A stretch of 64,000 nucleotides of DNA from Pyrodictiaceae archaeon (GTDB taxonomy: Archaea > Thermoproteota > Thermoprotei_A > Sulfolobales > Pyrodictiaceae), in NCBI GenBank assembly GCA_027036135.1, contig JALVSY010000007.1:420880-484879 (forward strand). Direction: 5' to 3'. Under the pieces are notes generated by a model. That model was not told the origin of the DNA. It made no database searches and worked only from the letters and a program-made list of their open reading frames with translations. A program made the translations under genes and the position numbers. Of this stretch, positions 11,027-35,798 are shown piece after piece; position 1 is the first letter of the stretch, and each line of letters opens with the position of its first letter.

Positions 11027-11104
11027 TGGCGGGCCCGCGGGGATTTGAACCCCGGACTACCGGCTCCGCAGGCCGGCGTCCTATCCTGGCTAGACTACGG
11101 GCCC
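11027..11104 (-). tRNA. tRNA-Arg(GCG), no intron, encoded CCA
   Basis: GGGCCCG acceptor stem, anticodon arm CCGGC-CTGCGGA-GCCGG, T-loop TTCAAAT, 3' GCCA. Confidence 0.97.
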
Positions 11105-24657: not shown

Positions 24658-25419
24658 ATGAGCTTTAGAGCCATTTATCCCGCGGCTACGAAGTTTAAAT
24701 ATATAGTTCAGACACTTGCAAAGGTGATGGACGAGATACCCTTTGTAGCCACAGCTGAGGGGCTCGAAGTTAAGGCGCTAACGCCTGATAAAACTACAAT
24801 GATAATTTTACGTCTCCCATCAACTGTCTTTGATTCTTTTGAGTTAGCAGAGGAGAAGAAAACCTTCATAGTCAGTGCTGACGAGTTAAATAGGATTGCC
24901 AAGCGAGGTACACGCAATGATATTGTTGAGCTAAAACTTGATGAAGAACATCGTAGGTTAGAGATAAACTTTCACGATAAGAAGACAGGTGTAGTTCGGT
25001 CGTTTTATGTGGCTCTCCGGGAGGGCATAGTTGAGGAGCTAAGTGAGCCTCAAGTGGAACTGAGTGTTACTGCGCGCATGATGGCAGAGGACTTCAAGAA
25101 TATAATTAATGATGCTAAGATAGTCAGTGACGAGGTAGAGTTCAAAACATATGAGGATAAGATAGAGGTTCTAGCTGAAACTACCCAGAAACGCTATCGT
25201 GGTGTCCTGGTGCAGGGAGATCCGCTGCTTAGCTTAGATGTTAGTGGGAATCCTCCTATATCAGCTAAGTACTCTATAGATCTATTGAAGGCTACGCTGA
25301 AGGCGACGAGTGCAGCTGATACAGTAACCTTGCAATATGGAGAATCGCTTCCTATGAGGCTTAGCTTCGATCTACCTGGTGGAGGCATACTCGTGTACTG
25401 GGTGTCTCCTAGAATCTAA
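24658..25419 (+). CDS. pcn: PCNA sliding clamp subunit
   Basis: 253 aa with PCNA fold pattern (ALTPDKTTMI, DAKIVSDEV, YSIDLL, LPMRLSF, YWVSPR). Confidence 0.93.
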   Translation: MSFRAIYPAATKFKYIVQTLAKVMDEIPFVATAEGLEVKALTPDKTTMIILRLPSTVFDSFELAEEKKTFIVSADELNRIAKRGTRNDIVELKLDEEHRRLEINFHDKKTGVVRSFYVALREGIVEELSEPQVELSVTARMMAEDFKNIINDAKIVSDEVEFKTYEDKIEVLAETTQKRYRGVLVQGDPLLSLDVSGNPPISAKYSIDLLKATLKATSAADTVTLQYGESLPMRLSFDLPGGGILVYWVSPRI

Positions 25420-25655
25420 CTTCCTTCCAGTTTCCTCAGTAGTTCTTCAAGTGCTTTCTTTGCCTCTTCCTTTGTCTCTGTTACTCTAGGTACTACTCCT
25501 CTTAGTGAAGGAAACCAGGCTGGTCGAGGACACTGGTTTCGTTCTGGACAAGCTAGACAGCAATATGGGCACACACTTCTCTCGGGATGAAGCCAGCATT
25601 GACGCGTAGGTCTGTGTCGTCCACATACATCGCATCTTTCCCAATAGATGCTCAT
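25416..25655 (-). CDS. Small Zn-binding Cys-rich protein
   Basis: CDVC..C..H..CPYCCLAC...C. Start set to ATG 25655. Confidence 0.78.
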   Translation of the reverse strand: MSIYWERCDVCGRHRPTRQCWLHPERSVCPYCCLACPERNQCPRPAWFPSLRGVVPRVTETKEEAKKALEELLRKLEGS

Positions 25656-25759
25656 TCCCGACCCCAGTACTCCTATTGATGCTTGAGGCAAACTAAAAAG
25701 GAGCAAGGCCTTAAAGTGTTATTAAACAAGTCTTATAAGAATACCATATAGATGGCTGA

Positions 25760-25906: not shown

Positions 25907-26287
25907 ATGAAGCGAATAACCATAGAAATCGATTTCGCGAAGTATAAATCAGTAAAACTTCCTAAGGATGAGGCCGAGAAACTCCTCCAGACACTTACCG
26001 AGATACTGGGTAAGAAGCCCAATGATATACAGGAGACACTTAGGTATATCAAGAACTTTGACGAGTTCTTTGAATATATGAGGAAAAAATTCAAGGACTA
26101 TCTCGCGCCACCGCATAGGGCTGATGACTATATTAGAGGTGAAGCAGTTGTTGACAAAGTTAAGTTGCTAAAAAGGAATAACGAAAAATATGTTATGATA
26201 ATATTTGATAGACGTGTTAAGGAAGACTTGATTAGAAAGGCTTTAGAGCAGCTAGGGTACGAGGTCGAAATAAAGAAGGTATTCTGA
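25907..26287 (+). CDS. Conserved hypothetical protein
   Basis: 126-aa ORF with SD GAGG and strong coding bias. Confidence 0.8.
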   Translation: MKRITIEIDFAKYKSVKLPKDEAEKLLQTLTEILGKKPNDIQETLRYIKNFDEFFEYMRKKFKDYLAPPHRADDYIRGEAVVDKVKLLKRNNEKYVMIIFDRRVKEDLIRKALEQLGYEVEIKKVF

Positions 26288-26304: not shown

Positions 26305-26556
26305 TTATTTCTTCTTTTTACGCCTCTTTGAACCAACAGTAGGTATAGCCACCGCTTGTAGCGAGGAAATAGCCTCTTCAACGCTAAGTTCTCCGTGCAA
26401 AACCTTTTCTAGGATATCTGTGCGCTTCACCATTGCCTCAAGTAGCGACGCGTTTATGTCGATATCGATCGCCTCTTCTAACTCTTCTCCTTCAGCGCTG
26501 CTGGTCTCACTTGTCCCAGTCTCTTCAGCAATTACCGGCTCCTCTGCCTCGGACAT
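26305..26556 (-). CDS. rpo13: RNA polymerase subunit Rpo13
   Basis: Acidic N-tail, core LLEAMVKRTDILEKVLHGELSVEEA resembling the Sulfolobus Rpo13 core as recalled (IELLMKNTEIWDNLLNGKISVDEA), basic C-tail. Confidence 0.78.
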   Translation of the reverse strand: MSEAEEPVIAEETGTSETSSAEGEELEEAIDIDINASLLEAMVKRTDILEKVLHGELSVEEAISSLQAVAIPTVGSKRRKKKK

Positions 26557-26635: not shown

Positions 26636-27649
26636 TCAGCTTATACGCAGCATTAATGGAGTATTAATATCGTAGTCGCGGACAACGGCGTAACCTTTGG
26701 GTAGTAAGCCGAGTGTTTCCGTAAGTATATCTATCTCGTCGCGATTATTACTAACAGCTATACTTTCCGCAACATATTTTGCTAGTTTTGGTTCAACTTG
26801 CCGTAATGCTATCTTTGTACCAGTATTAGCCAAGATTGATTTGTCTAGGTCGTCTAGGCGCTGTGTTATCAGTATAAGTGCAAGCCCATATTTCCTTAAC
26901 TCAGTAGCCATGTTCGCTACAATATTTCTCCGTGAATTCTTAGATGCAACAAGATGAGCCTCATCGATTACAAGTACTGCCCTAACGGTTTTTGCCAGGT
27001 CTCTTTCCTTCATAGCTATATATAGTTTTTCGAGAAACAACTCTATGTATAGACTTTGCCACGATCTCTCTCCAATACTTGATAAATCTATTATTACTGG
27101 CTTCTCTGAACCAAAGATAGTATCTATTGAAATATTTGTTTTCGCGAATACTCTTGAGGCAAGCGACTCTACATATGTTGCAACAATATATGCTCGCTTC
27201 TCTCTACTAGCAATCCGTCTCAGTATCTGAGCAACATCAAGTAAAGTAGGCGGTGTTCTTCTCCAAGTACTTGGCTCATTCTCTATTATGCCTTTTGCCT
27301 CGTAAGCGAGAAGTATAGCGTCTTCCAGTAAGCGTTCTTGAAGCGGTCCCAGCTTAAAGAGCGATGATATTAGGGAAGTGATCTCGATTGCTCGTTGCCG
27401 TGGACTTTTTCCATGTAGGTCTAAAGGATTAATGGATGAAGTAGAGGCATCTATGACTATGCTATCGTTTAACAAGTTCTTATACTCACCATGAGGATCG
27501 ATGATAATTACACTCGATTTGGCTGATTTGGCTATCTGAGTAGCTATCCTCGCAGCTGTATACGATTTTCCGGATCCCGATGCCCCGCTAATCACAATGT
27601 GGGGGTTCGTATGCACGCCAATACTTATCTTATTATGAGTGGTGCCCAA
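26636..27649 (-). CDS. HerA/VirB4-like ATPase domain (C-terminal part of a split gene)
   Basis: NPHIVISGASGSGKS, IDPHGEY, VIDEAH, ELRKYGLALILITQ. Confidence 0.88.
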   Translation of the reverse strand: MGTTHNKISIGVHTNPHIVISGASGSGKSYTAARIATQIAKSAKSSVIIIDPHGEYKNLLNDSIVIDASTSSINPLDLHGKSPRQRAIEITSLISSLFKLGPLQERLLEDAILLAYEAKGIIENEPSTWRRTPPTLLDVAQILRRIASREKRAYIVATYVESLASRVFAKTNISIDTIFGSEKPVIIDLSSIGERSWQSLYIELFLEKLYIAMKERDLAKTVRAVLVIDEAHLVASKNSRRNIVANMATELRKYGLALILITQRLDDLDKSILANTGTKIALRQVEPKLAKYVAESIAVSNNRDEIDILTETLGLLPKGYAVVRDYDINTPLMLRIS

Positions 27650-28410
27650 TCATATGAATACCTACGAGTAATTCGTATGTTCTCGTCACGATACCTCACG
27701 AGAGGAGATTCTATTAGGGCTGCAATAGCTTGGCCTAGTTCAGCCCCCTCTCTATTCCGAAGCATTTCAATTACTTCTATCGTTTCTGCGTCCTTGAGGT
27801 AATATAATAAAAGTACTAATGGAGGATATCGTAACGACGATACAAAGACTAATGAGGAGACTACTTGGAGCAGTGGGATGTCTTGTACTGGTGCTATGAA
27901 TAGATATAGAGGTATTGATACGATATAAAGATATATTATATTAGGTGGTATATGTGGGCTTAGAATCCATAGCAAAAGAGTTAGTATGGCGACATAGATT
28001 AATTGGTTCCTAAAACTTGTACTATAATCTTCTAATATGTTTTTATAATATCTTAGAATATTTATTACGCTAGCTAGGAAACTATCTTTTATATTATTTC
28101 TTTTAATATTAATTATTAGAAGTACTATTAAATATATGATTAGTATTGACTCCGTTATTGATACAGCCATTGTTGGTACTAATGTTGGTAATTGGTTATT
28201 AAAATTTGTTATAAGTATTGTTCTCTCTAATATTTTAAAAAATATTACTATATTCATAATAAATATAAGAATTGTAGCTAATATTGATTTGAGTATTAAA
28301 GCAACGAGAATCCCTATTAAAGGGTATACAATACTAGCGTATTGACTAGGCACGAATAATACAGTAGCGGCAAGGAATAACGAGAGAATAATACTAAGTT
28401 GTTGTCTCAT
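27625..28410 (-). CDS. Polytopic membrane protein (probable N-terminal part of the split HerA/VirB4 gene)
   Basis: About 6-7 TM segments followed by a soluble LGQAIAALI strand. Overlaps the ATPase ORF by 25 nt in another frame. Confidence 0.72.
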   Translation of the reverse strand: MRQQLSIILSLFLAATVLFVPSQYASIVYPLIGILVALILKSILATILIFIMNIVIFFKILERTILITNFNNQLPTLVPTMAVSITESILIIYLIVLLIINIKRNNIKDSFLASVINILRYYKNILEDYSTSFRNQLIYVAILTLLLWILSPHIPPNIIYLYIVSIPLYLFIAPVQDIPLLQVVSSLVFVSSLRYPPLVLLLYYLKDAETIEVIEMLRNREGAELGQAIAALIESPLVRYRDENIRITRRYSYDWAPLIIR

Positions 28411-28443
28411 TAGCACTCTTCCAAGCTCTGAGGTGAACTGGTA

Positions 28444-31260
28444 GTGCAACAAGATAATGTTTTTTCTCTACTCGACACGCGGCTCTATAAAGTGCTCAGT
28501 AAATATGGATATAGAGAACCTACTCCCATACAGTCGGCAGCAATTCCTTTTATTCTTACTGGCTATAGTGTTCTGATAGCTGCTCCCACTGGGAGCGGAA
28601 AAACAGAAGCAGCTTTGTTTCCTGTAATGTCCATGATACTTAGAAACAGACTCTCCGGGATACGTGCTCTCTATATTACTCCTCTTAAGAGCTTAAACAG
28701 GGACATTTTCCAAAGAATGGCACGTATTGCCGAGGAGGCTGGTTTAAGTCTTAGAGTTAGGCATGGTGATAGCAGTGCGTCGGAGAAAAGAGAATTCTTG
28801 ATGAATCCTCCAGCAATAGCTATTATGACTCCCGAAACTTTCTACTTACTTTTATCCTCGGAGCCTTTCAGGAGATCATTAAGATATTTGGAATACGTAA
28901 TAGTAGATGAAGTTCACGAGCTCTTATCGAGTAAACGTGGTGTAGAGTTATCTCTAGCGATAGAGCGTGTTGATGCTCTTTATTCAAGGAAACACCTAAA
29001 GATTATAGCATTATCGGCAACGCTAAGCGATCCATTTGGTGTTGCGAGGCTCATCATGGGGCATAGAGTATTTAGGGTTATTAATGCAGATAGATTAGTA
29101 AAACGCTATGCAATAGAGGTTGATGTGCCATGCCCTAAGGAATCCTGTTCCGATTCGCTAGAGTCTCTTAATGCTAGAGTGAATTATATAGCTAACAAGG
29201 TGGCGAGTTCTCGCGGAAATGTTTTGCTGTTTACGAATACTCGTGACACAGCAGAGGTGCTCGGCGCTTTACTTAGGAGTAGGCTAGGCAATATTGTCCG
29301 TGTTCATCACGGTAGCCTTAGTAGGGATGAACGAATAGAGAGTGAAACATACTTCCGGGACGGCAAGGTGAGATTGCTTATAGCGACTTCAAGCCTAGAA
29401 CTGGGCATCGATATAGGGCGTGTTGACTTAGTTATTCAGTACTTATCTCCGCGCCAAGCCTCTAGGCTTGTTCAGCGTGTTGGTAGGGCTTCACATAAAT
29501 TAGGCTTAGTATCGAGGGGCATCATAGTTGCATCACCTAACGTTTTTGACATCCTTGAATCAGCTGTTATAGCTGCTAGAGCTATGCGAGGCAACTTAGA
29601 GGACCTCTATATACATATGAATGCACTAGACGCTTTGGTTCATCAAGTTGTGGGCTTGGTTATAGAGAGGGGTTCAATAAAGTTACTAGATGCTTACAAT
29701 ATCATTACACGTAGTAAATTCTATGAAAACCTTGACATAGATCAGTTTATTCAAGCAATCAGTGTAGCAGATTCTGTTGGCATTCTTCGTTTTAATGGCA
29801 ACGAGATTAAGCCTGGACCGCGTAGTAAGAGTTACTACTTCTCTACAACGATGATAACAGAGACTAAGCAATATGATGTAATCGACTCCATTAGTGGTAA
29901 GAAGATAGGCGTACTTGACGAGGAATTTGTCGCAACACTCGATAAGGGTGATGTCTTCGTACTAGCGGGTAGGGTTTGGGAGGTAATAGATATCACAAAT
30001 GATGTTGTGCGCGTAATTCCTCAAAGTAATACAGAGCGATTAATGCCTCCAGCATGGGAGGGCGAGCTAATACCAGTCGAATACGGTGTTGCACGTGAGG
30101 TTGGAAGTATTCTGAGAAGATTTAAGGAAAACAATAATGTTTTAGAGAATTATCCCCTATCCGAAAATGCTAAGGCCCTGGTGAATAGAAAGCTTATGAA
30201 TTATCTCAAAGATATAGGAGAACTACCTAGCGATAGAAGCTGCGTCATAGAGCACTATGGTGACGTCTTCATTATTTATAGTTTCTTGGGGTCTAGAGGG
30301 AATAAGGCTCTTGAGTACCTTATCTCAGCGTACATAGCTGAGATAGAAGGCTTTAATCCATCAACAGCCAGTACGCCCTATGTAGTCGCGGTTCGTCTTC
30401 CATCGCGCCGCTCAGCATCTTATGTTAGACAAATACTGCAAGGGCTAATGATGCTAAGTGATAAAGAAATAATAGAGCTAGTTAAAAGGGCAGTTAAAAG
30501 AAGTAAAATGTTTGAGTGGACTCTCTACAGAGTTAGTGTAAGAAGTGGTGCTATTCAGCGCGAGGTAGTTGATACCACGCTTTTGAAGAGAACACTAAGA
30601 AGATTAGCTGATACCATTCTCGGTGAGGAGGCTTTCAGAGAGATCCTTGTGAGAAAGATTGATATTAATGCGCTCTTACAATTCATTAAGGAGTTAAGAA
30701 AAGGAATACGTAAGTTAAAAGTCGTTGAACTAAGAAATATATCCATTTTAGCAGAGGACGCTGTATCAGAGGCAAGGTTTAGTGACAAGATAATTGCAAA
30801 ACAACTACCATCTACTATCATCGCTGAGGCTATTAAGAGAAGACTATCTCGGAAGGAGGTATACCTAGTATGTCTTATGTGTGGTTCGATTAAGAGAGAG
30901 TTAATCTCGAACATAGAAGATACTCCGAAGTGCGAAGAATGCGGCTCGAGAATGTTAGCACCATTTACCAGCATGGAAGAGGCCAAGAAAATCGCTAATA
31001 TTGTAAGGAAGAGACGCCAGCTAAGAACCCTTACGAAAAGCGAGGCTAGGTTGCTAAGAGAGGCTTATGAGAGGGCAAACATAGTGCTTAATTATGGTAA
31101 AAAAGGTATCGAGGCCTTATCTTGGATCGGCATTGGTCCGTCAACGGCTAGAAGGGTTCTGAAAAAACTTGTATTCGGTGAAGAGGCGTTTTATAAAGCT
31201 CTTATAGAGGCAGAGGTTCAATTTCATAAGTATAAGCATAAGCTTCAAAGAAAGGAATAG
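28444..31260 (+). CDS. lhr: Lhr family ATP-dependent helicase
   Basis: PTPIQ, APTGSGKTEAA, DEVHEL, HHGSL, SSLELGIDIG, QRVGRASH, PPAWEGE, C-terminal CLMC/CEEC. Confidence 0.95.
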   Translation: MQQDNVFSLLDTRLYKVLSKYGYREPTPIQSAAIPFILTGYSVLIAAPTGSGKTEAALFPVMSMILRNRLSGIRALYITPLKSLNRDIFQRMARIAEEAGLSLRVRHGDSSASEKREFLMNPPAIAIMTPETFYLLLSSEPFRRSLRYLEYVIVDEVHELLSSKRGVELSLAIERVDALYSRKHLKIIALSATLSDPFGVARLIMGHRVFRVINADRLVKRYAIEVDVPCPKESCSDSLESLNARVNYIANKVASSRGNVLLFTNTRDTAEVLGALLRSRLGNIVRVHHGSLSRDERIESETYFRDGKVRLLIATSSLELGIDIGRVDLVIQYLSPRQASRLVQRVGRASHKLGLVSRGIIVASPNVFDILESAVIAARAMRGNLEDLYIHMNALDALVHQVVGLVIERGSIKLLDAYNIITRSKFYENLDIDQFIQAISVADSVGILRFNGNEIKPGPRSKSYYFSTTMITETKQYDVIDSISGKKIGVLDEEFVATLDKGDVFVLAGRVWEVIDITNDVVRVIPQSNTERLMPPAWEGELIPVEYGVAREVGSILRRFKENNNVLENYPLSENAKALVNRKLMNYLKDIGELPSDRSCVIEHYGDVFIIYSFLGSRGNKALEYLISAYIAEIEGFNPSTASTPYVVAVRLPSRRSASYVRQILQGLMMLSDKEIIELVKRAVKRSKMFEWTLYRVSVRSGAIQREVVDTTLLKRTLRRLADTILGEEAFREILVRKIDINALLQFIKELRKGIRKLKVVELRNISILAEDAVSEARFSDKIIAKQLPSTIIAEAIKRRLSRKEVYLVCLMCGSIKRELISNIEDTPKCEECGSRMLAPFTSMEEAKKIANIVRKRRQLRTLTKSEARLLREAYERANIVLNYGKKGIEALSWIGIGPSTARRVLKKLVFGEEAFYKALIEAEVQFHKYKHKLQRKE

Positions 31261-31317
31261 TTTCACCTACCCCATTCCCGGATATTGTTTCTACGAACAA
31301 AGAATCTACGGGGTAAG

Positions 31318-31593
31318 TTGAGCGATATAGTGAGTTTCATAAACACACTCACTACCCGGATAGTTACCATAGCATGGGGATTATTCCTTTTAACATGGAG
31401 CATTGGCTGGCTTCTCAAAGGCTCTCCCATACCCTTTATGAGAGTAAAGAGAGCCGGGCAAGACCTAGTTGAGGATGCTGTCTGGGCTGCCTTCTGGCTT
31501 GCACTAGGCTCATCAATATTCGCGCTAATATCATATATTGTTAATATGGTTGTTGGGTCACCAAGCATCAATGTAACCTCGGTACAACCCTAG
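31318..31593 (+). CDS. cedA1: DNA import pilin CedA1
   Basis: AWGLFLLTWSIGWLLKGSPIPFMRVKRAGQDLVEDAVWAAFWLALGS matches CedA1. TTG start behind SD GGGGT. Confidence 0.92.
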   Translation: MSDIVSFINTLTTRIVTIAWGLFLLTWSIGWLLKGSPIPFMRVKRAGQDLVEDAVWAAFWLALGSSIFALISYIVNMVVGSPSINVTSVQP

Positions 31594-31609
31594 TAGGTGA
31601 TAATAAGCC

Positions 31610-33055
31610 ATGGTAGTACTAAGTCCCTCAGCTCTGCTTTTATTAGCCACACAGATATCTGTACTCACGTACCATGTTGGTGTGCTAATCTACTTGGCTC
31701 CAATACCTATACGTAGTCTAAAGAGGTGGGCACCGCTCCTTATTCAGGATAGTATATGGGCCGTGATACTAGCGCTTTCCTTCTCGGCTCTCCTATATCT
31801 TTCAGACCTTATTGCATCATGGAGTGGATATACGCTTCAGGACGTAGTACTTTATGCAAAATCTCGAATGAGTGCAATACTTACAGCACAATTTATACTA
31901 AAGATGTTTATGATGATGACGTCTATATTTGCATCGGCTTTTAATAAATTCTTCTCCTTTTTCCTAATACCTCTTACACTAAATTTTTATGCACTAATAT
32001 CAGCATTTACAGTAGTAATAATAATAGCGGGTATAGTTATGAGTACTAAGGCCGCGCTAGCTGCACTAGGCATAGTATTGATGTCGTTACCCTTTAGGCT
32101 CGGACGTAATGCAGGTGCATCATTACTTGCATTTAGTCTCGTAGCTAATGCAATGCTACCATATCTACCTATTTGGATTAGCTTCTTCTACCAGGGCCTT
32201 ATACAAGGATATACGAATGTTCATGAACTAAATCATGTATCCCTTTACAAGACCTATGATCTTTGGGGGACAATCTACGGAGAGGCCGGCACATATCCCC
32301 ACGGAGGCTTAATTTTCTTTAATAATACAAATCTCCGTACAACGTTCATATTTAGAATACGGCAAGATGGAAGCTATTACATAATATATCCAGAAGGCAT
32401 ACCTAATGGTACATATATAATATATATAGAATATCTCGGAGCAAAGATAGTAAATCAAGGCTTTATAAATATACCACGAGATCTTAGGCTAACGTACGAC
32501 TTAGATGAAGCACCCTACCGCCTAGATATACACCTAAAAGATTATGTGTTTCTGAACCCTGACGTAGTACTCTTTAGTCAGGATTGCTCAAGTGTAAGAG
32601 TGAATAAAAATACAGATTCTCTATCTGTGATTACGTGCACACCTTCTACAAATTATGTGCATATAGAGCTCTATGTACCAGGTACATGTAGCGTTGAGTT
32701 TAAGACAAAAGGAGGCGATGTATATACAAGTGCCTTGTTCTATAAGCGATGGAGAGGAATAGGGGTACGCATTTACAAGTTCGGCGTGTACGGTGGTGTA
32801 GGTTATCCGATAACAATTGAAATAACTAAAAAAGGTACATGTTATGTTAATTGGGATAAAATTATAGCTGGAAAAATAATTCAGCAAACACCTAATAACG
32901 AGGGTCTCAATTTTAGTACACTAATGTACCTAATAGTATACATGACAGCGCTACCTATGGCAGTGTTCTCGTTCCTTACAATTATGAGCTTAGTAGTTGT
33001 TAGTGTTGCTCGCGCCCTTGGCGCTTCGTACTCACGCATAATATTTGAGCTCTGA
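31610..33055 (+). CDS. cedA: DNA import membrane channel CedA with large inserted domain
   Basis: GVLIYLAPIPIRSLKRWAPLLIQDSIW and LPFRLGRNAGASLLAF motifs, located after cedA1. Confidence 0.9.
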   Translation: MVVLSPSALLLLATQISVLTYHVGVLIYLAPIPIRSLKRWAPLLIQDSIWAVILALSFSALLYLSDLIASWSGYTLQDVVLYAKSRMSAILTAQFILKMFMMMTSIFASAFNKFFSFFLIPLTLNFYALISAFTVVIIIAGIVMSTKAALAALGIVLMSLPFRLGRNAGASLLAFSLVANAMLPYLPIWISFFYQGLIQGYTNVHELNHVSLYKTYDLWGTIYGEAGTYPHGGLIFFNNTNLRTTFIFRIRQDGSYYIIYPEGIPNGTYIIYIEYLGAKIVNQGFINIPRDLRLTYDLDEAPYRLDIHLKDYVFLNPDVVLFSQDCSSVRVNKNTDSLSVITCTPSTNYVHIELYVPGTCSVEFKTKGGDVYTSALFYKRWRGIGVRIYKFGVYGGVGYPITIEITKKGTCYVNWDKIIAGKIIQQTPNNEGLNFSTLMYLIVYMTALPMAVFSFLTIMSLVVVSVARALGASYSRIIFEL

Positions 33056-33073
33056 AAGGTGTGGTGACTAGGT

Positions 33074-33244
33074 ATGTCTCAAAAAACTGTATTGAGGCTG
33101 AAGCTTCAGACGACATTAAAAATAGCTCTTGTGGCTTCATTAATTGGACTGGTAGCAGCGGTTGCTACAAAAGAAAAATATATATTAATAATATCTATAA
33201 TAAATTTAGTATTATCTGTTTATTTAGCCAATGTTCTTAGGTGA
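33074..33244 (+). CDS. cedA2: Small two-TM protein CedA2 (not in the ORF track)
   Basis: Manual translation MSQKTVLRLKLQTTLKIALVASLIGLVAAVATKEKYILIISIINLVLSVYLANVLR (56 aa), SD GGTGA, between cedA and cedB. Assignment is positional. Confidence 0.72.
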   Translation: MSQKTVLRLKLQTTLKIALVASLIGLVAAVATKEKYILIISIINLVLSVYLANVLR

Positions 33245-33248
33245 TATT

Positions 33249-34598
33249 ATGATTATAGTTAGCATAATAGCGATAGTTATATTATTTAATATAGTTCCGG
33301 GATACATAGGTGTTAGTTCATTAATAGATAGAATATTTGGTAGAAAAAAGAGGGAAAGTGGTCAAAGATGTTGTATTAATATAGATAATAAATGCTATTA
33401 TTTATATAGAATATATCGTGATGATTGTATATTAGGTCTTCTTCGAAGCGGTGCACTATTAGAGTTAATGAGGGACTCGAATCTGTCGGGTATATTTGTG
33501 GTTTATGAGAGAGTTCAGCTTCACAAGGCTCTTCGCGAAATTGAGGCAAAAATATTAACATATAGAGTTGAACTTGAACGTAACCCGGATAATTTGCGAG
33601 CAAAGCAACGTCTAGAATTATTAGAATACATCTATAAAGAATTATCTAGATTAAATGATCCGATTAAGCCAACGCTTCTAATAGTGCTAGATAGTGAGGC
33701 AAAGCTTAGTGATATAAAGAAGAAACTATCTATATATAGATGCGGCATAAAGAGTGCTTGTAGTTTTTTACTAAATAGACGTAAGCCAATTATATCACGG
33801 AATTCTATTGCAATCAATATCATCCAAGTATTAAATTATGCCTACTCCTTGCTTGCTCTGCAAAGTAGCTCCGGCTTCTTGATAGGCTATGAGATGCTTA
33901 ATAATACTCCCGTAAAGCTCCCTATGTGGAGTAATAGACTAGGTGCTCTTCATACACTGATTGTTGGACCGAGTGGCAGAGGGAAAACAACGCTTCTTGC
34001 ACGTTTGGTGTTCGAAAGCATTGTTAAAGAAAACTATTGTCTAAAAGTTATAGATCCTAAAGGTGATTTAGAAGAATTGATAGGCAGAATTATGTGGCTA
34101 GGTAACCTAGAAATATATGATAGTAGTAAAACGGATCTAATCAACTTAGACACTTTGCTTGATTGGCCTAGTAAGTGTCGATATAAAGTAGTTATAGGTG
34201 ATGAGGCTTGGCGAGTAATAAGTGAACTAGGCTCCAAGTATGATAAACTAATTAGGTCTGCTAGAAGCTTGGGCATAAACCTTGTATTGGCGTCTCAACA
34301 ACCAGAGGATTTTCCGCAGAGCATGTGGAATAATTCCCATAACTTCATAGTGTTTGGATCATCTAGTCCAAGCTATATTGAGTCCATTAAAAGATTTGCA
34401 AATATATCTGAGGAGGAGGCATCTCAGCTTCTTAGGCTTGGAATAGGTGAGGCATTGCTTAAACACTTCAAATCTATGACGGGTATATTCTTTCGTGCAT
34501 ATACTCCACCGATAACAGTTAAGAATCCGGGAGAAGGGGTTGGGAAGGCTGGGAGAAGGGTGCTAAGCTATGGGCAAGCGATTGATTATCCAGCGTAG
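33249..34598 (+). CDS. cedB: VirB4/HerA-like ATPase CedB
   Basis: N-terminal TM, coiled coil, HTLIVGPSGRGKTT, IDPKGD, GDEAW, RSLGINLVLASQ, located after cedA2. Confidence 0.82.
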   Translation: MIIVSIIAIVILFNIVPGYIGVSSLIDRIFGRKKRESGQRCCINIDNKCYYLYRIYRDDCILGLLRSGALLELMRDSNLSGIFVVYERVQLHKALREIEAKILTYRVELERNPDNLRAKQRLELLEYIYKELSRLNDPIKPTLLIVLDSEAKLSDIKKKLSIYRCGIKSACSFLLNRRKPIISRNSIAINIIQVLNYAYSLLALQSSSGFLIGYEMLNNTPVKLPMWSNRLGALHTLIVGPSGRGKTTLLARLVFESIVKENYCLKVIDPKGDLEELIGRIMWLGNLEIYDSSKTDLINLDTLLDWPSKCRYKVVIGDEAWRVISELGSKYDKLIRSARSLGINLVLASQQPEDFPQSMWNNSHNFIVFGSSSPSYIESIKRFANISEEEASQLLRLGIGEALLKHFKSMTGIFFRAYTPPITVKNPGEGVGKAGRRVLSYGQAIDYPA

Positions 34599-35286
34599 GG
34601 GTAGAGGCACACCACTATATCGTAGCAGGCCGTGGCTCCACCCAGCACCGGCTCGATATCCACCGCTAACACCAGTTACTCTTAGAGGCAGAGTTATAGA
34701 ACTGATACATGACCCGGGGAGATGGGTTCCATTAGCACACATTGTGCTAGAGAACGGACAAGACTTCTGGATACCAGCTGTTGAGGGAATGTATGTTGGC
34801 CAAATCATAGAAATAGGGCCCGAAGCTACACCAAGCAATGGCAACATACTGCCAGTAGGGAGAATACCGGAGGGAACACAGGTAACCAACGTAGAGATAC
34901 GGCCAGGAGATGGCGGGAAGATAGCTAGATCCTCGGGGACCTACGCAGTTATTATTGGAAGAAGTGGAAACAAGACACTAATTCAGCTCCCTAGTGGCAA
35001 AGTAAAAGAAGTGCCTAATGATGCAAGAGCGACTATAGGGGTAATAGCTGGAGGAGGTAGGCTAGAAAAGCCATTACTAAAAGCGGGTGCCTCGTACTAC
35101 AAGTGGAGCGCAAAACCACATGTATGGCCGCGTGTAAGGGGCGTAGCAATGAACGCTGTAGACCATCCACATGGCGGTGGCAGCCACCAGAGCCCGAGCT
35201 TCCCAACAACAGTCTCGCGTAATGCGCCTCCAGGCCGCAAAGTAGGCCACATAGCTGCTAGGTCAACTGGTCGTAAGAAGAGGTAA
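34570..35286 (+). CDS. rpl2: 50S ribosomal protein uL2
   Basis: MGKRLIIQRRGRG, HDPGR, VRGVAMNAVDHPHGGG. Confidence 0.98.
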   Translation: MGKRLIIQRRGRGTPLYRSRPWLHPAPARYPPLTPVTLRGRVIELIHDPGRWVPLAHIVLENGQDFWIPAVEGMYVGQIIEIGPEATPSNGNILPVGRIPEGTQVTNVEIRPGDGGKIARSSGTYAVIIGRSGNKTLIQLPSGKVKEVPNDARATIGVIAGGGRLEKPLLKAGASYYKWSAKPHVWPRVRGVAMNAVDHPHGGGSHQSPSFPTTVSRNAPPGRKVGHIAARSTGRKKR

Positions 35287-35330
35287 ACCTAATTCAACCC
35301 CTTAGCTATTGATGTGTAGAGGGAGTAATT

Positions 35331-35798
35331 ATGCAGAGTGCGCGTCTCCGACTAGACGAGGAAATGAAGAAATGGCTTGATGCTCTTCCGCCAGAATGGA
35401 AGAAGTTCAAGTACCGTGGCTATTCCCTAGAGGAACTCTTATCCATGCCTATGGATGAATTTGTAAAACTATTGCCAGCAAGGCAGAGGCGAAGCCTACT
35501 TCGAGGCTTGACGGATCAGCAACGAAGACTGTTATGGAAAATAAGAAAGGCACGTAAGAAGATCCTTGAAGGGAAGAAAGTTGTTGTTAAAACACATGTA
35601 AGGGACATGATAATACTACCAGAAATGGTTGGCTTAACTATAGCTGTATACAATGGAAAGGAATTCGTACCCGTAAGAATACAGCCAGAAATGATAGGGC
35701 ACTACTTAGGAGAATTCAGTCCAACATGTAAGCAAGTGCAGCACGGCGAGCCAGGTCTTAAGGCAACAAGAAGCACCCTACACGTAGCGCTAAAGTAG
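35331..35798 (+). CDS. rps19: 30S ribosomal protein uS19
   Basis: [25 protein letters not shown]. Confidence 0.98.

Follow-up and report, generated by a model that had tools for sequence, protein, structure and literature searches.

A membrane ATPase clade closest to CedB and paired with the helicase aLhr1 beside the Ced DNA-import genes of a Pyrodictiaceae archaeon

A stretch of 64,000 nucleotides (nt) from the genome of a Pyrodictiaceae archaeon (NCBI GenBank assembly GCA_027036135.1, contig JALVSY010000007.1, positions 420,880 to 484,879 of the forward strand; hereafter the window) contains a genuine and apparently complete Ced DNA-import cluster, composed of cedA1, a probable long cedA, a cedA2-like gene, and cedB. 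Immediately upstream of this cluster, a gene coding for an Lhr-type helicase and a gene coding for a membrane ATPase are arranged head to head. We found that the ATPase represents a third clade, which is distinct from CedD and HerA and has CedB as its closest neighbor; for this clade, we coined the name Lhr-associated ATPase (LAA). The helicase is of the aLhr1 type. The LAA-aLhr1 pair is old and order-wide, and Ced, LAA, and lhr are found together much more frequently, and in a greater variety of configurations, than would be expected of genes placed at random in genomes of 1.1 to 3.0 Mb. A role of the pair in DNA exchange is plausible.

An earlier, sequence-only reading of the window had placed lhr, the ced genes, and a divergent membrane ATPase in this locus, and all of them are present at the positions that it gave. 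The features are as follows, in coordinates of the window, with lengths in amino acids (aa) and open reading frames abbreviated as ORFs.

26636-28452, minus strand: LAA, whole membrane ATPase gene, present as two ORFs in the window
26636..27649, minus strand: C-terminal part of LAA with the HerA/VirB4-type ATPase domain (337-aa ORF; DUF87, AAA_10)
27632..27633, no strand: site of 13 letters missing from the window relative to other assemblies, the cause of the apparent split of LAA
27625..28452, minus strand: N-terminal part of LAA, multipass membrane domain (275-aa ORF, out of frame with the ATPase ORF and sharing 25 nt with it)
28444..31260, plus strand: lhr, aLhr1 type, 938 aa (Pfam DEAD, Helicase_C, WH_Lhr, DEAD_assoc)
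31285..31593, or from 31318, plus strand: cedA1, VirB2-like Ced pilin (NF041797)
31610..33055, plus strand: cedA, long form, 481 aa (membrane domain matching NF041796 below its cut-off)
33074..33244, plus strand: cedA2-like small membrane protein, 56 aa, with two hydrophobic stretches (assigned by position and topology only)
33231..34598, plus strand: cedB, membrane-anchored VirB4/HerA-type ATPase, 455 aa (CedB clade in the tree)

LAA is a third ATPase clade, nearest to CedB

The ATPase part of LAA was recognized by the Pfam families DUF87 (61.1 bits; cut-off of 23.2) and AAA_10 (49.4 bits; cut-off of 27.5) and has the P-loop ATPase fold of the HerA/VirB4 branch of the FtsK-HerA superfamily. 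A match to TrwB_AAD_bind (34.7 bits; cut-off of 20.5) covered only residues 15 to 77 around the P-loop, and LAA did not qualify as an FtsK/SpoIIIE protein, scoring 19.3 bits on Pfam FtsK_SpoIIIE, under the cut-off of 24, over residues 6 to 32 only. The N-terminal ORF is hydrophobic throughout. A structure model of the intact LAA of a relative from the same genus (predicted local distance difference test [pLDDT] of 81.7) comprises a helical membrane domain at residues 1 to 233, a beta hairpin, and an ATPase domain with a pLDDT above 90. The membrane domain is modeled with some eight to ten helices, with block pLDDT values mostly of 55 to 79 (39 for the first block and 90 for the last). Foldseek searches with this model returned HerA (4d2i; E value of 9e-18), DndH-C (7es4), and VirB4 (4ag5; TM score of 0.74 by target), with no TrwB or VirD4 chain among the best matches listed. 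Profile-profile comparison of the LAA membrane domain with CedA gave a probability of 0.6%, i.e., no relation.

The affiliation of LAA was then read from a tree of 58 ATPases (IQ-TREE quick search, supported by the Shimodaira-Hasegawa-like approximate likelihood ratio test [SH-aLRT] only). HerA (SH-aLRT of 98), CedD (97, 13 rows), CedB (99, 11 rows), and LAA (95, 27 rows) formed separate clades, and those of CedB and LAA joined with a support of 94. The LAA clade holds the window ATPase and four Sulfolobaceae proteins encoded next to Lhr, and one protein of the family coded f6 below branched just outside it on a long branch. A placement of the second ATPase within an unrelated HerA clade, which would have spoken against the sequence-only reading, was thus not observed.

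Could LAA nevertheless be the CedD of this lineage, i.e., the known second Ced motor, merely placed beside ced? In the first family scan, CedD was the top NCBIfam name for the window LAA (97.5 bits; E value of 7.5e-28), CedD co-occurs with CedB in most Desulfurococcales (PMC11868833), and TedD lies inside the Ted locus in Thermoproteales (PMC11823120). However, the score of LAA is far below the cut-off of 600 and close to its HerA score (81.6 bits), whereas the CedD model gave 157.9 bits for another protein of the same genome, of 526 aa, whose second-best family reached 49 bits. The best Sulfolobaceae matches of the latter protein are the true CedD genes, and it falls into the CedD clade of the tree, apart from that of LAA. 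CedD, CedB, and LAA are moreover three separate genes in Sulfolobaceae. In the five genomes of that family that were compared, CedD (622 to 732 bits) and CedB (797 to 831 bits) scored above the cut-offs and stand at places of their own. The LAA gene was located in four of the five, three of which were scanned directly, and its products gave about 40 to 53 bits on the CedD and CedB models or none (about 46 to 53 or none on CedD). Orthology of LAA with CedD was therefore rejected, the clades being separate and a better candidate being present elsewhere, and we consider it very unlikely that LAA is CedD. The gene of the 526-aa CedD candidate is found away from the ced cluster, on a different contig (C16:200148-201728, plus strand; L005:949-2526). 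Where the sequence-only reading counted two motors, the genome has three membrane-type ATPases, CedB, the CedD candidate, and LAA, and LAA, lying outside the CedB (99) and CedD (97) clades, is not a known Ced motor.

CedB (Saci_0748 type) and LAA are both membrane-anchored HerA/VirB4-type ATPases in nearest clades (94); their taxonomic ranges coincide, and their genes often share a locus. They differ in their clades (99 versus 95) and in their membrane parts, a short anchor in CedB and about eight to ten N-terminal helices in LAA; LAA reaches only some 40 to 63 bits on the CedB model, and the two are present as separate genes within one genome. CedD (Saci_0667, SiRe_1715) also shares with LAA the superfamily, the order, and the character of a membrane ATPase beside CedB-bearing systems, but it belongs to a different clade, and it has been shown to be essential for import, whereas the role of LAA is predicted from sequence.

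Naming by best hit would mislabel LAA as CedD. A search with LAA in a collection of 5.8 billion proteins gave 11 matches, with names no better than "hypothetical protein," which is also the NCBI name of the LAA orthologue in a named species of the same genus. In the ESM Atlas, the cluster of LAA itself has 130 archaeal members and a generic ATPase name. An ATPase-profile scan of public genome contigs, based on a single peptide pattern, yielded mostly distant HerA-type genes.

A further HerA-type ATPase of the window genome, 345 aa long (contig C30:281871-282908, minus strand), has a very long branch in the tree. Its richness in Ala, Pro, and Arg sets it apart from the remainder of this low-GC genome, and it may represent foreign DNA or a misbinned contig.

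The split of LAA is specific to the window record

In the window, LAA appears as two overlapping ORFs of 275 and 337 aa in different frames. The same-genus relative has a single ORF of 609 aa, 89% identical to the window sequence in the ATPase part and 73% in the N-terminal part, and in the alignment with it the window is without 13 nt at about positions 27632 to 27634. The ORF is uninterrupted in 20 of 20 relatives (536 to 668 aa). Contigs from all four public runs that were consulted, coming from three studies, carry 13 extra letters behind position 27632; among them, the contig of the probable source sample, with a depth of 75.8, has these letters and is otherwise identical over 8 kb. An intact 595-aa protein (P0002), identical to both LAA halves, is present in the protein collection. 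Because of the contigs of the four runs and this intact protein, we conclude that the split is an assembly artifact or a rare variant and not the normal state of the organism.

The two out-of-frame ORFs, overlapping by 25 nt, might also be taken for a pseudogene or for a natural two-part gene. With the 13 additional letters at the break in every run, including the deeply covered probable source, an intact protein on record, and halves that are otherwise well conserved, this is most improbable. As contigs can hide rare variants, a minority strain with the frameshift might exist. A single membrane-anchored HerA/VirB4 ATPase diverging from lhr, as described in the sequence-only reading, is thus correct for the intact form of the organism but not for the letters of the window, which read as two ORFs. 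For the window record, automatic annotation would report a pseudogene or a pair of genes, although in the population the gene is single and intact.

The helicase encoded next to LAA is aLhr1

The window lhr gene codes for a superfamily 2 helicase core, a winged helix, domain 4, a C-terminal CxxC...CxxC zinc ribbon, and a conserved helical tail. The CxxC...CxxC motif is found in 27 of 27 orthologues, with four invariant Cys columns. A C-terminal Cys-rich motif added to the Lhr core is the hallmark of aLhr1 (PMC8301817), and because the window protein combines the two, it is an aLhr1. Three Lhr paralogues are encoded in the window genome. The translations of the other two have no Cys-rich C-terminal stretch; one has a strong domain 4 match (aLhr2-like), and for the other a scan of 722 residues returned no domain 4 (aLhr3-like). 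No difference at the domain level was found between the window protein and aLhr1 of Sulfolobaceae (Saci_0814, SSO0394, SiRe_1605). Their contexts differ, as lhr is directly upstream of cedA1 in the window and not in Sulfolobaceae.

The sequence-only reading had likened the window gene to the Lhr helicase encoded near the ups operon. That protein, Saci_1500, is indeed an Lhr-family helicase near DNA-exchange genes, but it is aLhr2, of another paralogue group and without the Cys-rich tail (PMC8301817). The analogy does not hold, since the window gene is an aLhr1 like Saci_0814, and the window genome has its own aLhr2-like gene elsewhere.

aLhr1 corresponds to Saci_0814 and SSO0394 (PMC10003305) and Rpo13 to Saci_0816 and SSO0396 (PMC2675907). 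In a genome of the genus Sulfolobus (locus L144), the gene order is Lhr, LAA, Rpo13. In the genomes of this genus, the one-per-genome aLhr1 orthologue, at 651 to 653.5 kb and two genes from rpo13, fits the tag number 0814 on the scale given by cedA1, cedD, and cedB. By position, the LAA orthologue would thus be the gene between saci_0814 and saci_0816. In the literature library that was searched, no paper mentioned saci_0813/0815, SiRe_1604/1606, or SSO0395.

aLhr1 is nearly ubiquitous in archaea (PMC10003305). Loss of Saci_0814 lowers the recombination of an electroporated linear cassette five-fold, deletion of aLhr1 makes cells broadly DNA-damage sensitive, and the homologue SSO0394 is a candidate interactor of complexes between single-stranded DNA and single-stranded DNA-binding protein (PMC10003305).

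The window holds a genuine, apparently complete Ced cluster

CedA1 was identified as the Ced pilin by the curated model NF041797, at 129.5 bits (cut-off of 100) over residues 15 to 89. Two in-frame TTG starts are available for its gene, at 31285 and at 31318, i.e., 24 and 57 nt after the lhr stop at 31260. The true start is probably at 31318, and the 57-nt gap between lhr and cedA1 given in the sequence-only reading stands with that start; with the other one, it shrinks to 24 nt. The start of cedA lies 17 nt downstream of cedA1. Its product matched NF041796 over residues 5 to 208 (E value of 1.4e-33; 116.6 bits), under the cut-off of 330 of this Sulfolobaceae-based model of 259 positions. Cut-offs of both the CedA and the CedB models were set on Sulfolobaceae. 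The position and the conservation of the ORF at 31610-33055 are consistent with cedA, and long cedA ORFs of 468 to 531 aa were found in 13 relatives from four families.

The structure model of CedA (pLDDT of 80.7) has a helical membrane domain at about residues 5 to 208, two beta-sandwich domains at about 214 to 409, and a last membrane helix at 435 to 469. The beta part, of about 200 aa, is an insertion absent from the Sulfolobaceae-based NF041796. Outside Sulfolobaceae, cedA occurs in a long form, with some 200 residues inserted before the last membrane helix. The insert would presumably face the outside of the cell. A fold search with the CedA model gave only weak, generic tandem beta-sandwich matches (best E value of 5.5e-4; TM score of 0.18).

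The cedA2-like ORF had no family match in Pfam and NCBIfam scans; it is 66% identical in the same-genus relative and has a weak match in one other genus. CedB, whose N terminus is hydrophobic, scored 76.7 bits on NF041017 (E value of 1.4e-21), under the cut-off of 700. Its place in the tree identifies it as CedB, since the CedB clade that contains it (SH-aLRT of 99) also includes three Sulfolobaceae proteins scoring above this cut-off.

The LAA-aLhr1 pair is order-wide and recurs near ced genes

Conservation was analyzed in 151 genomes of the order in the GTDB sense, which includes Sulfolobaceae, with families coded f1 to f13 (f13 is Sulfolobaceae). Lhr orthologues were accepted at an E value of ≤1e-95 and LAA at ≤1e-55, a line set after a gap had been seen in the list. 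Related genomes are not independent, and the counts represent patterns rather than statistics.

An orthologue of the window Lhr, one per genome, was present in 146 of the 151 genomes, CedA1 in 135, and LAA in 91. The starts of lhr and LAA in the window locus overlap or lie no more than about 34 nt apart, and the two genes were adjacent and divergent in 62 of the 91 LAA-bearing genomes. By family, this was the case in 20/20 Sulfolobaceae, 10/12 genomes of f1, 14/16 of f2, 12/18 of f10, 2/3 of f12, the single genome (1/1) in each of f3, f5, f8, and f11, 0/11 of f6, and 0/7 of f7. LAA was at most 6 kb from cedA1 in 26 of the 91 genomes, 6 to 15 kb away in 12, farther away in 16, and on another contig in 35, and no cedA1 was found in the remaining 2. 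Both lhr and cedA1 were present in 131 genomes; lhr was directly followed by cedA1 in 28 of them (11 of f1, 16 of f4, and 1 of f11) and lay 0.6 to 3 kb upstream of it in 16 (14 of f10, 1 of f3, and 1 of f4). The two genes were within 15 kb in another 12 and far apart or on different contigs in 75. In f4, which is without LAA, lhr directly precedes cedA1 in 16 of 19 genomes.

At the level of whole loci, the genes flanking the window locus are as follows.

24658-25419, plus strand: PCNA gene, flanking the locus
26305..26556, minus strand: rpo13, RNA polymerase subunit Rpo13, downstream of LAA (Pfam RNA_pol_Rpo13, 28.2 bits; cut-off of 25)
34570..35798, plus strand: rpl2 and rps19, downstream border of the locus (Pfam Ribosomal_L2_C and Ribosomal_S19)

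Twenty loci of relatives were compared, 13 of them from the family of the window. The full chain rpo13/ATPase/lhr/cedA1/cedA/cedB/rpl2/rps19 was found in 8 of these 13, and two more match it up to their contig ends. The rpl2/rps19 border is present in 9 own-family loci, the eight with the full chain and one without lhr, and rpo13 adjoins LAA in 14 of the 20 loci as well as in the Sulfolobaceae locus L144. Linkage of lhr and the second ATPase to ced, as expected from the sequence-only reading, thus recurs in relatives. Several arrangements exist. In the family of the window, LAA diverges from lhr-cedA1-cedA-cedB; in two genera of this family, LAA diverges from cedA1, with no lhr between them. 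In f11 (L149), cedB-cedA-cedA1-LAA lie on one strand and face lhr, and 5 of the 7 genomes of f7 have LAA some 2 kb away from cedA1, in a locus that has no lhr.

One genus of the window's family (L151; G009, contig C1:1526000-1538000) has rpo13 directly facing lhr and no LAA, with cedA1 9.5 kb downstream of lhr, as if LAA had been lost cleanly while lhr and ced were retained.

In a sample spanning the phylum, LAA (E value of ≤1e-50) was detected in 1 of 130 genomes from outside the order. Within the order, CedA1 accompanies LAA in 89 of the 91 LAA genomes; a further 46 genomes carry CedA1 but not LAA, and 14 are without both. Searches of 12 genomes, which represent four genera of three families, recovered Lhr in all 12 but no CedA1 and only weak ATPase matches. 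Other genera of these families do carry CedA1, and for two of the families most genomes of those genera carry LAA as well.

The sequence-only reading had proposed that this lineage gathered the module. This found no support: the pair is order-wide, including 20 of 20 Sulfolobaceae genomes, and lhr or LAA lies near cedA1 in several families in varied arrangements. The pattern fits an old linkage followed by dispersal at least as well as a local gathering.

A possible role of LAA and aLhr1 in DNA exchange

Among known systems, Ced alone uses a conjugation-like machine to import chromosomal DNA from cell to cell. We propose that LAA might function as a ring-shaped membrane DNA translocase, by analogy with its HerA/VirB4 relatives, and that its partner would be aLhr1, a helicase that unwinds branched DNA in Sulfolobus and without which incoming linear DNA does not recombine normally there. 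The two may constitute an accessory DNA-handling module of Ced-mediated exchange. In the recipient, LAA and aLhr1 could take up and unwind the DNA arriving via CedA and CedB; in the donor, they could prepare and feed the DNA. aLhr1 would also have a wider repair role, independent of Ced. Because of the kinship of LAA with CedB, its taxonomic range, its absence together with Ced, and the data on aLhr1 in Sulfolobus, we regard a role of the pair in DNA exchange as plausible, with about even chances.

The proposed membrane ring ATPase and helicase bring to mind VirD4/TraD with the relaxase-helicase TraI of bacterial conjugation, and also FtsK/SpoIIIE and Streptomyces TraB; the analogy is with a membrane-anchored ring ATPase of the FtsK-HerA superfamily that acts with a helicase on DNA crossing a membrane. 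The locus differs from conjugation coupling systems in that no relaxase is present and that the best fold matches of LAA are HerA and VirB4 rather than TrwB or FtsK. A bolder version of the proposal would make LAA and aLhr1 the missing donor-side or hand-over machinery of chromosomal DNA exchange in archaea. The part played in bacterial conjugation by the coupling protein and the relaxase-helicase would then fall, without a relaxase, to a 3'-5' helicase and a ring ATPase in the membrane, and Ced would have three dedicated motors, CedB, CedD, and LAA. We consider this version unlikely. CedD, which is essential for DNA import, was described in 2025 (PMC11868833, PMC11823120), and the ATPases that export DNA are unknown according to the discussion in one of these reports (PMC11868833). 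LAA is a concrete candidate for an open role in preparing, exporting, or handing over DNA because its clade is nearest to CedB, it occurs in the same archaea, it is encoded head to head with a recombination-linked helicase, and it is repeatedly found in ced loci. As an orthologue is predicted by position in a genetically tractable model, this candidate is directly testable.

Several observations weigh against a role in exchange. Adjacency alone is weak evidence, since rpo13, for which a link to DNA import is not plausible, stands next to LAA with equal fidelity, and the neighborhood consists of information-processing genes (PCNA, rpo13, and ribosomal proteins, with a PP-loop enzyme in other families). 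aLhr1 is present in 146 of 151 genomes, including those in which no CedA1 was found, and the 46 CedA1 genomes without an LAA orthologue include those of f4, f8, and f9. Among Sulfolobaceae, to which the experiments are confined, the distance of LAA and lhr from ced exceeds 15 kb in 14 of 20 genomes, and in 2 they lie on other contigs. The f6 ATPases, none of which is adjacent to lhr, may be another paralogue, as the branch of one f6 protein lies just beyond the LAA clade, which limits the counts. Neither LAA nor aLhr1 appears in the table of UV-induced, TFB3-dependent genes of a recent study (PMC11823120). The aLhr1 promoter of S. islandicus has a box for the cell-cycle regulator aCcr1, and aLhr1 is downregulated together with cdvA and segAB on overexpression of aCcr1 in S. 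islandicus (PMC9976892).

The main rival explanation is that LAA and aLhr1 form a housekeeping genome-maintenance module, located near ced through an old, conserved information-processing neighborhood; one possibility is an FtsK-like membrane translocase acting with a helicase in repair, chromosome resolution, or cell division. This agrees with the rpo13-LAA-lhr block standing far from ced in Sulfolobaceae, with the rpo13, PCNA, and ribosomal protein genes that flank the locus, and with the reported cotranscription of Rpo13 with pcna3 in S. solfataricus (PMC2675907). It would also account for the near-universal presence of aLhr1 and the broad DNA-damage sensitivity of its deletion (PMC10003305), for the aCcr1 box (PMC9976892), and for the genomes that have CedA1 and no LAA. 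Unlike aLhr1, however, LAA is nearly confined to the Ced-bearing order, it is missing along with CedA1 in four genera of three families, and its clade is the nearest to CedB. In addition, the nearness of LAA to cedA1 outlasts rearrangements in which lhr is lost or the strand or order is changed, which passive synteny does not predict. We therefore see a housekeeping module as a serious but somewhat doubtful alternative to a role in exchange.

Neighboring genes and other features of the window

Two families have a gene for a PP-loop enzyme (SGGKDS) of about 660 to 680 aa, with an N-terminal zinc-ribbon-like motif, between lhr and cedA1; in a third family this gene immediately follows lhr (with cedA1 about 10 kb further), and in another it stands between cedA1 and LAA (L148:2072-4042, L047:8189-10219, L052:11129-13162, and L049:8454-10484). 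This further conserved neighbor is probably unrelated to DNA exchange. In the window, two small ORFs between PCNA and rpo13 (25416-25706, minus strand, and 25907-26287, plus strand) have no Pfam match.

A scan for bacterial-type promoters and terminators, which is uninformative for an archaeon, gave 23 promoter-like sites versus 24.3 expected and 6 terminator-like sites versus 5.1, and no clear TATA-like box was seen by eye in the short spacers of the locus. The RNA-family scan of the whole window gave no rRNA match and a tRNA at 11030-11104 (minus strand) as its sole match. Between 42000 and 64000, the G+C content rises from about 0.37-0.45 to values of 0.47-0.58, and the ORFs, of about 200 to 460 aa, are mostly on the plus strand; they would fit a run of ribosomal-protein and secY-type genes.

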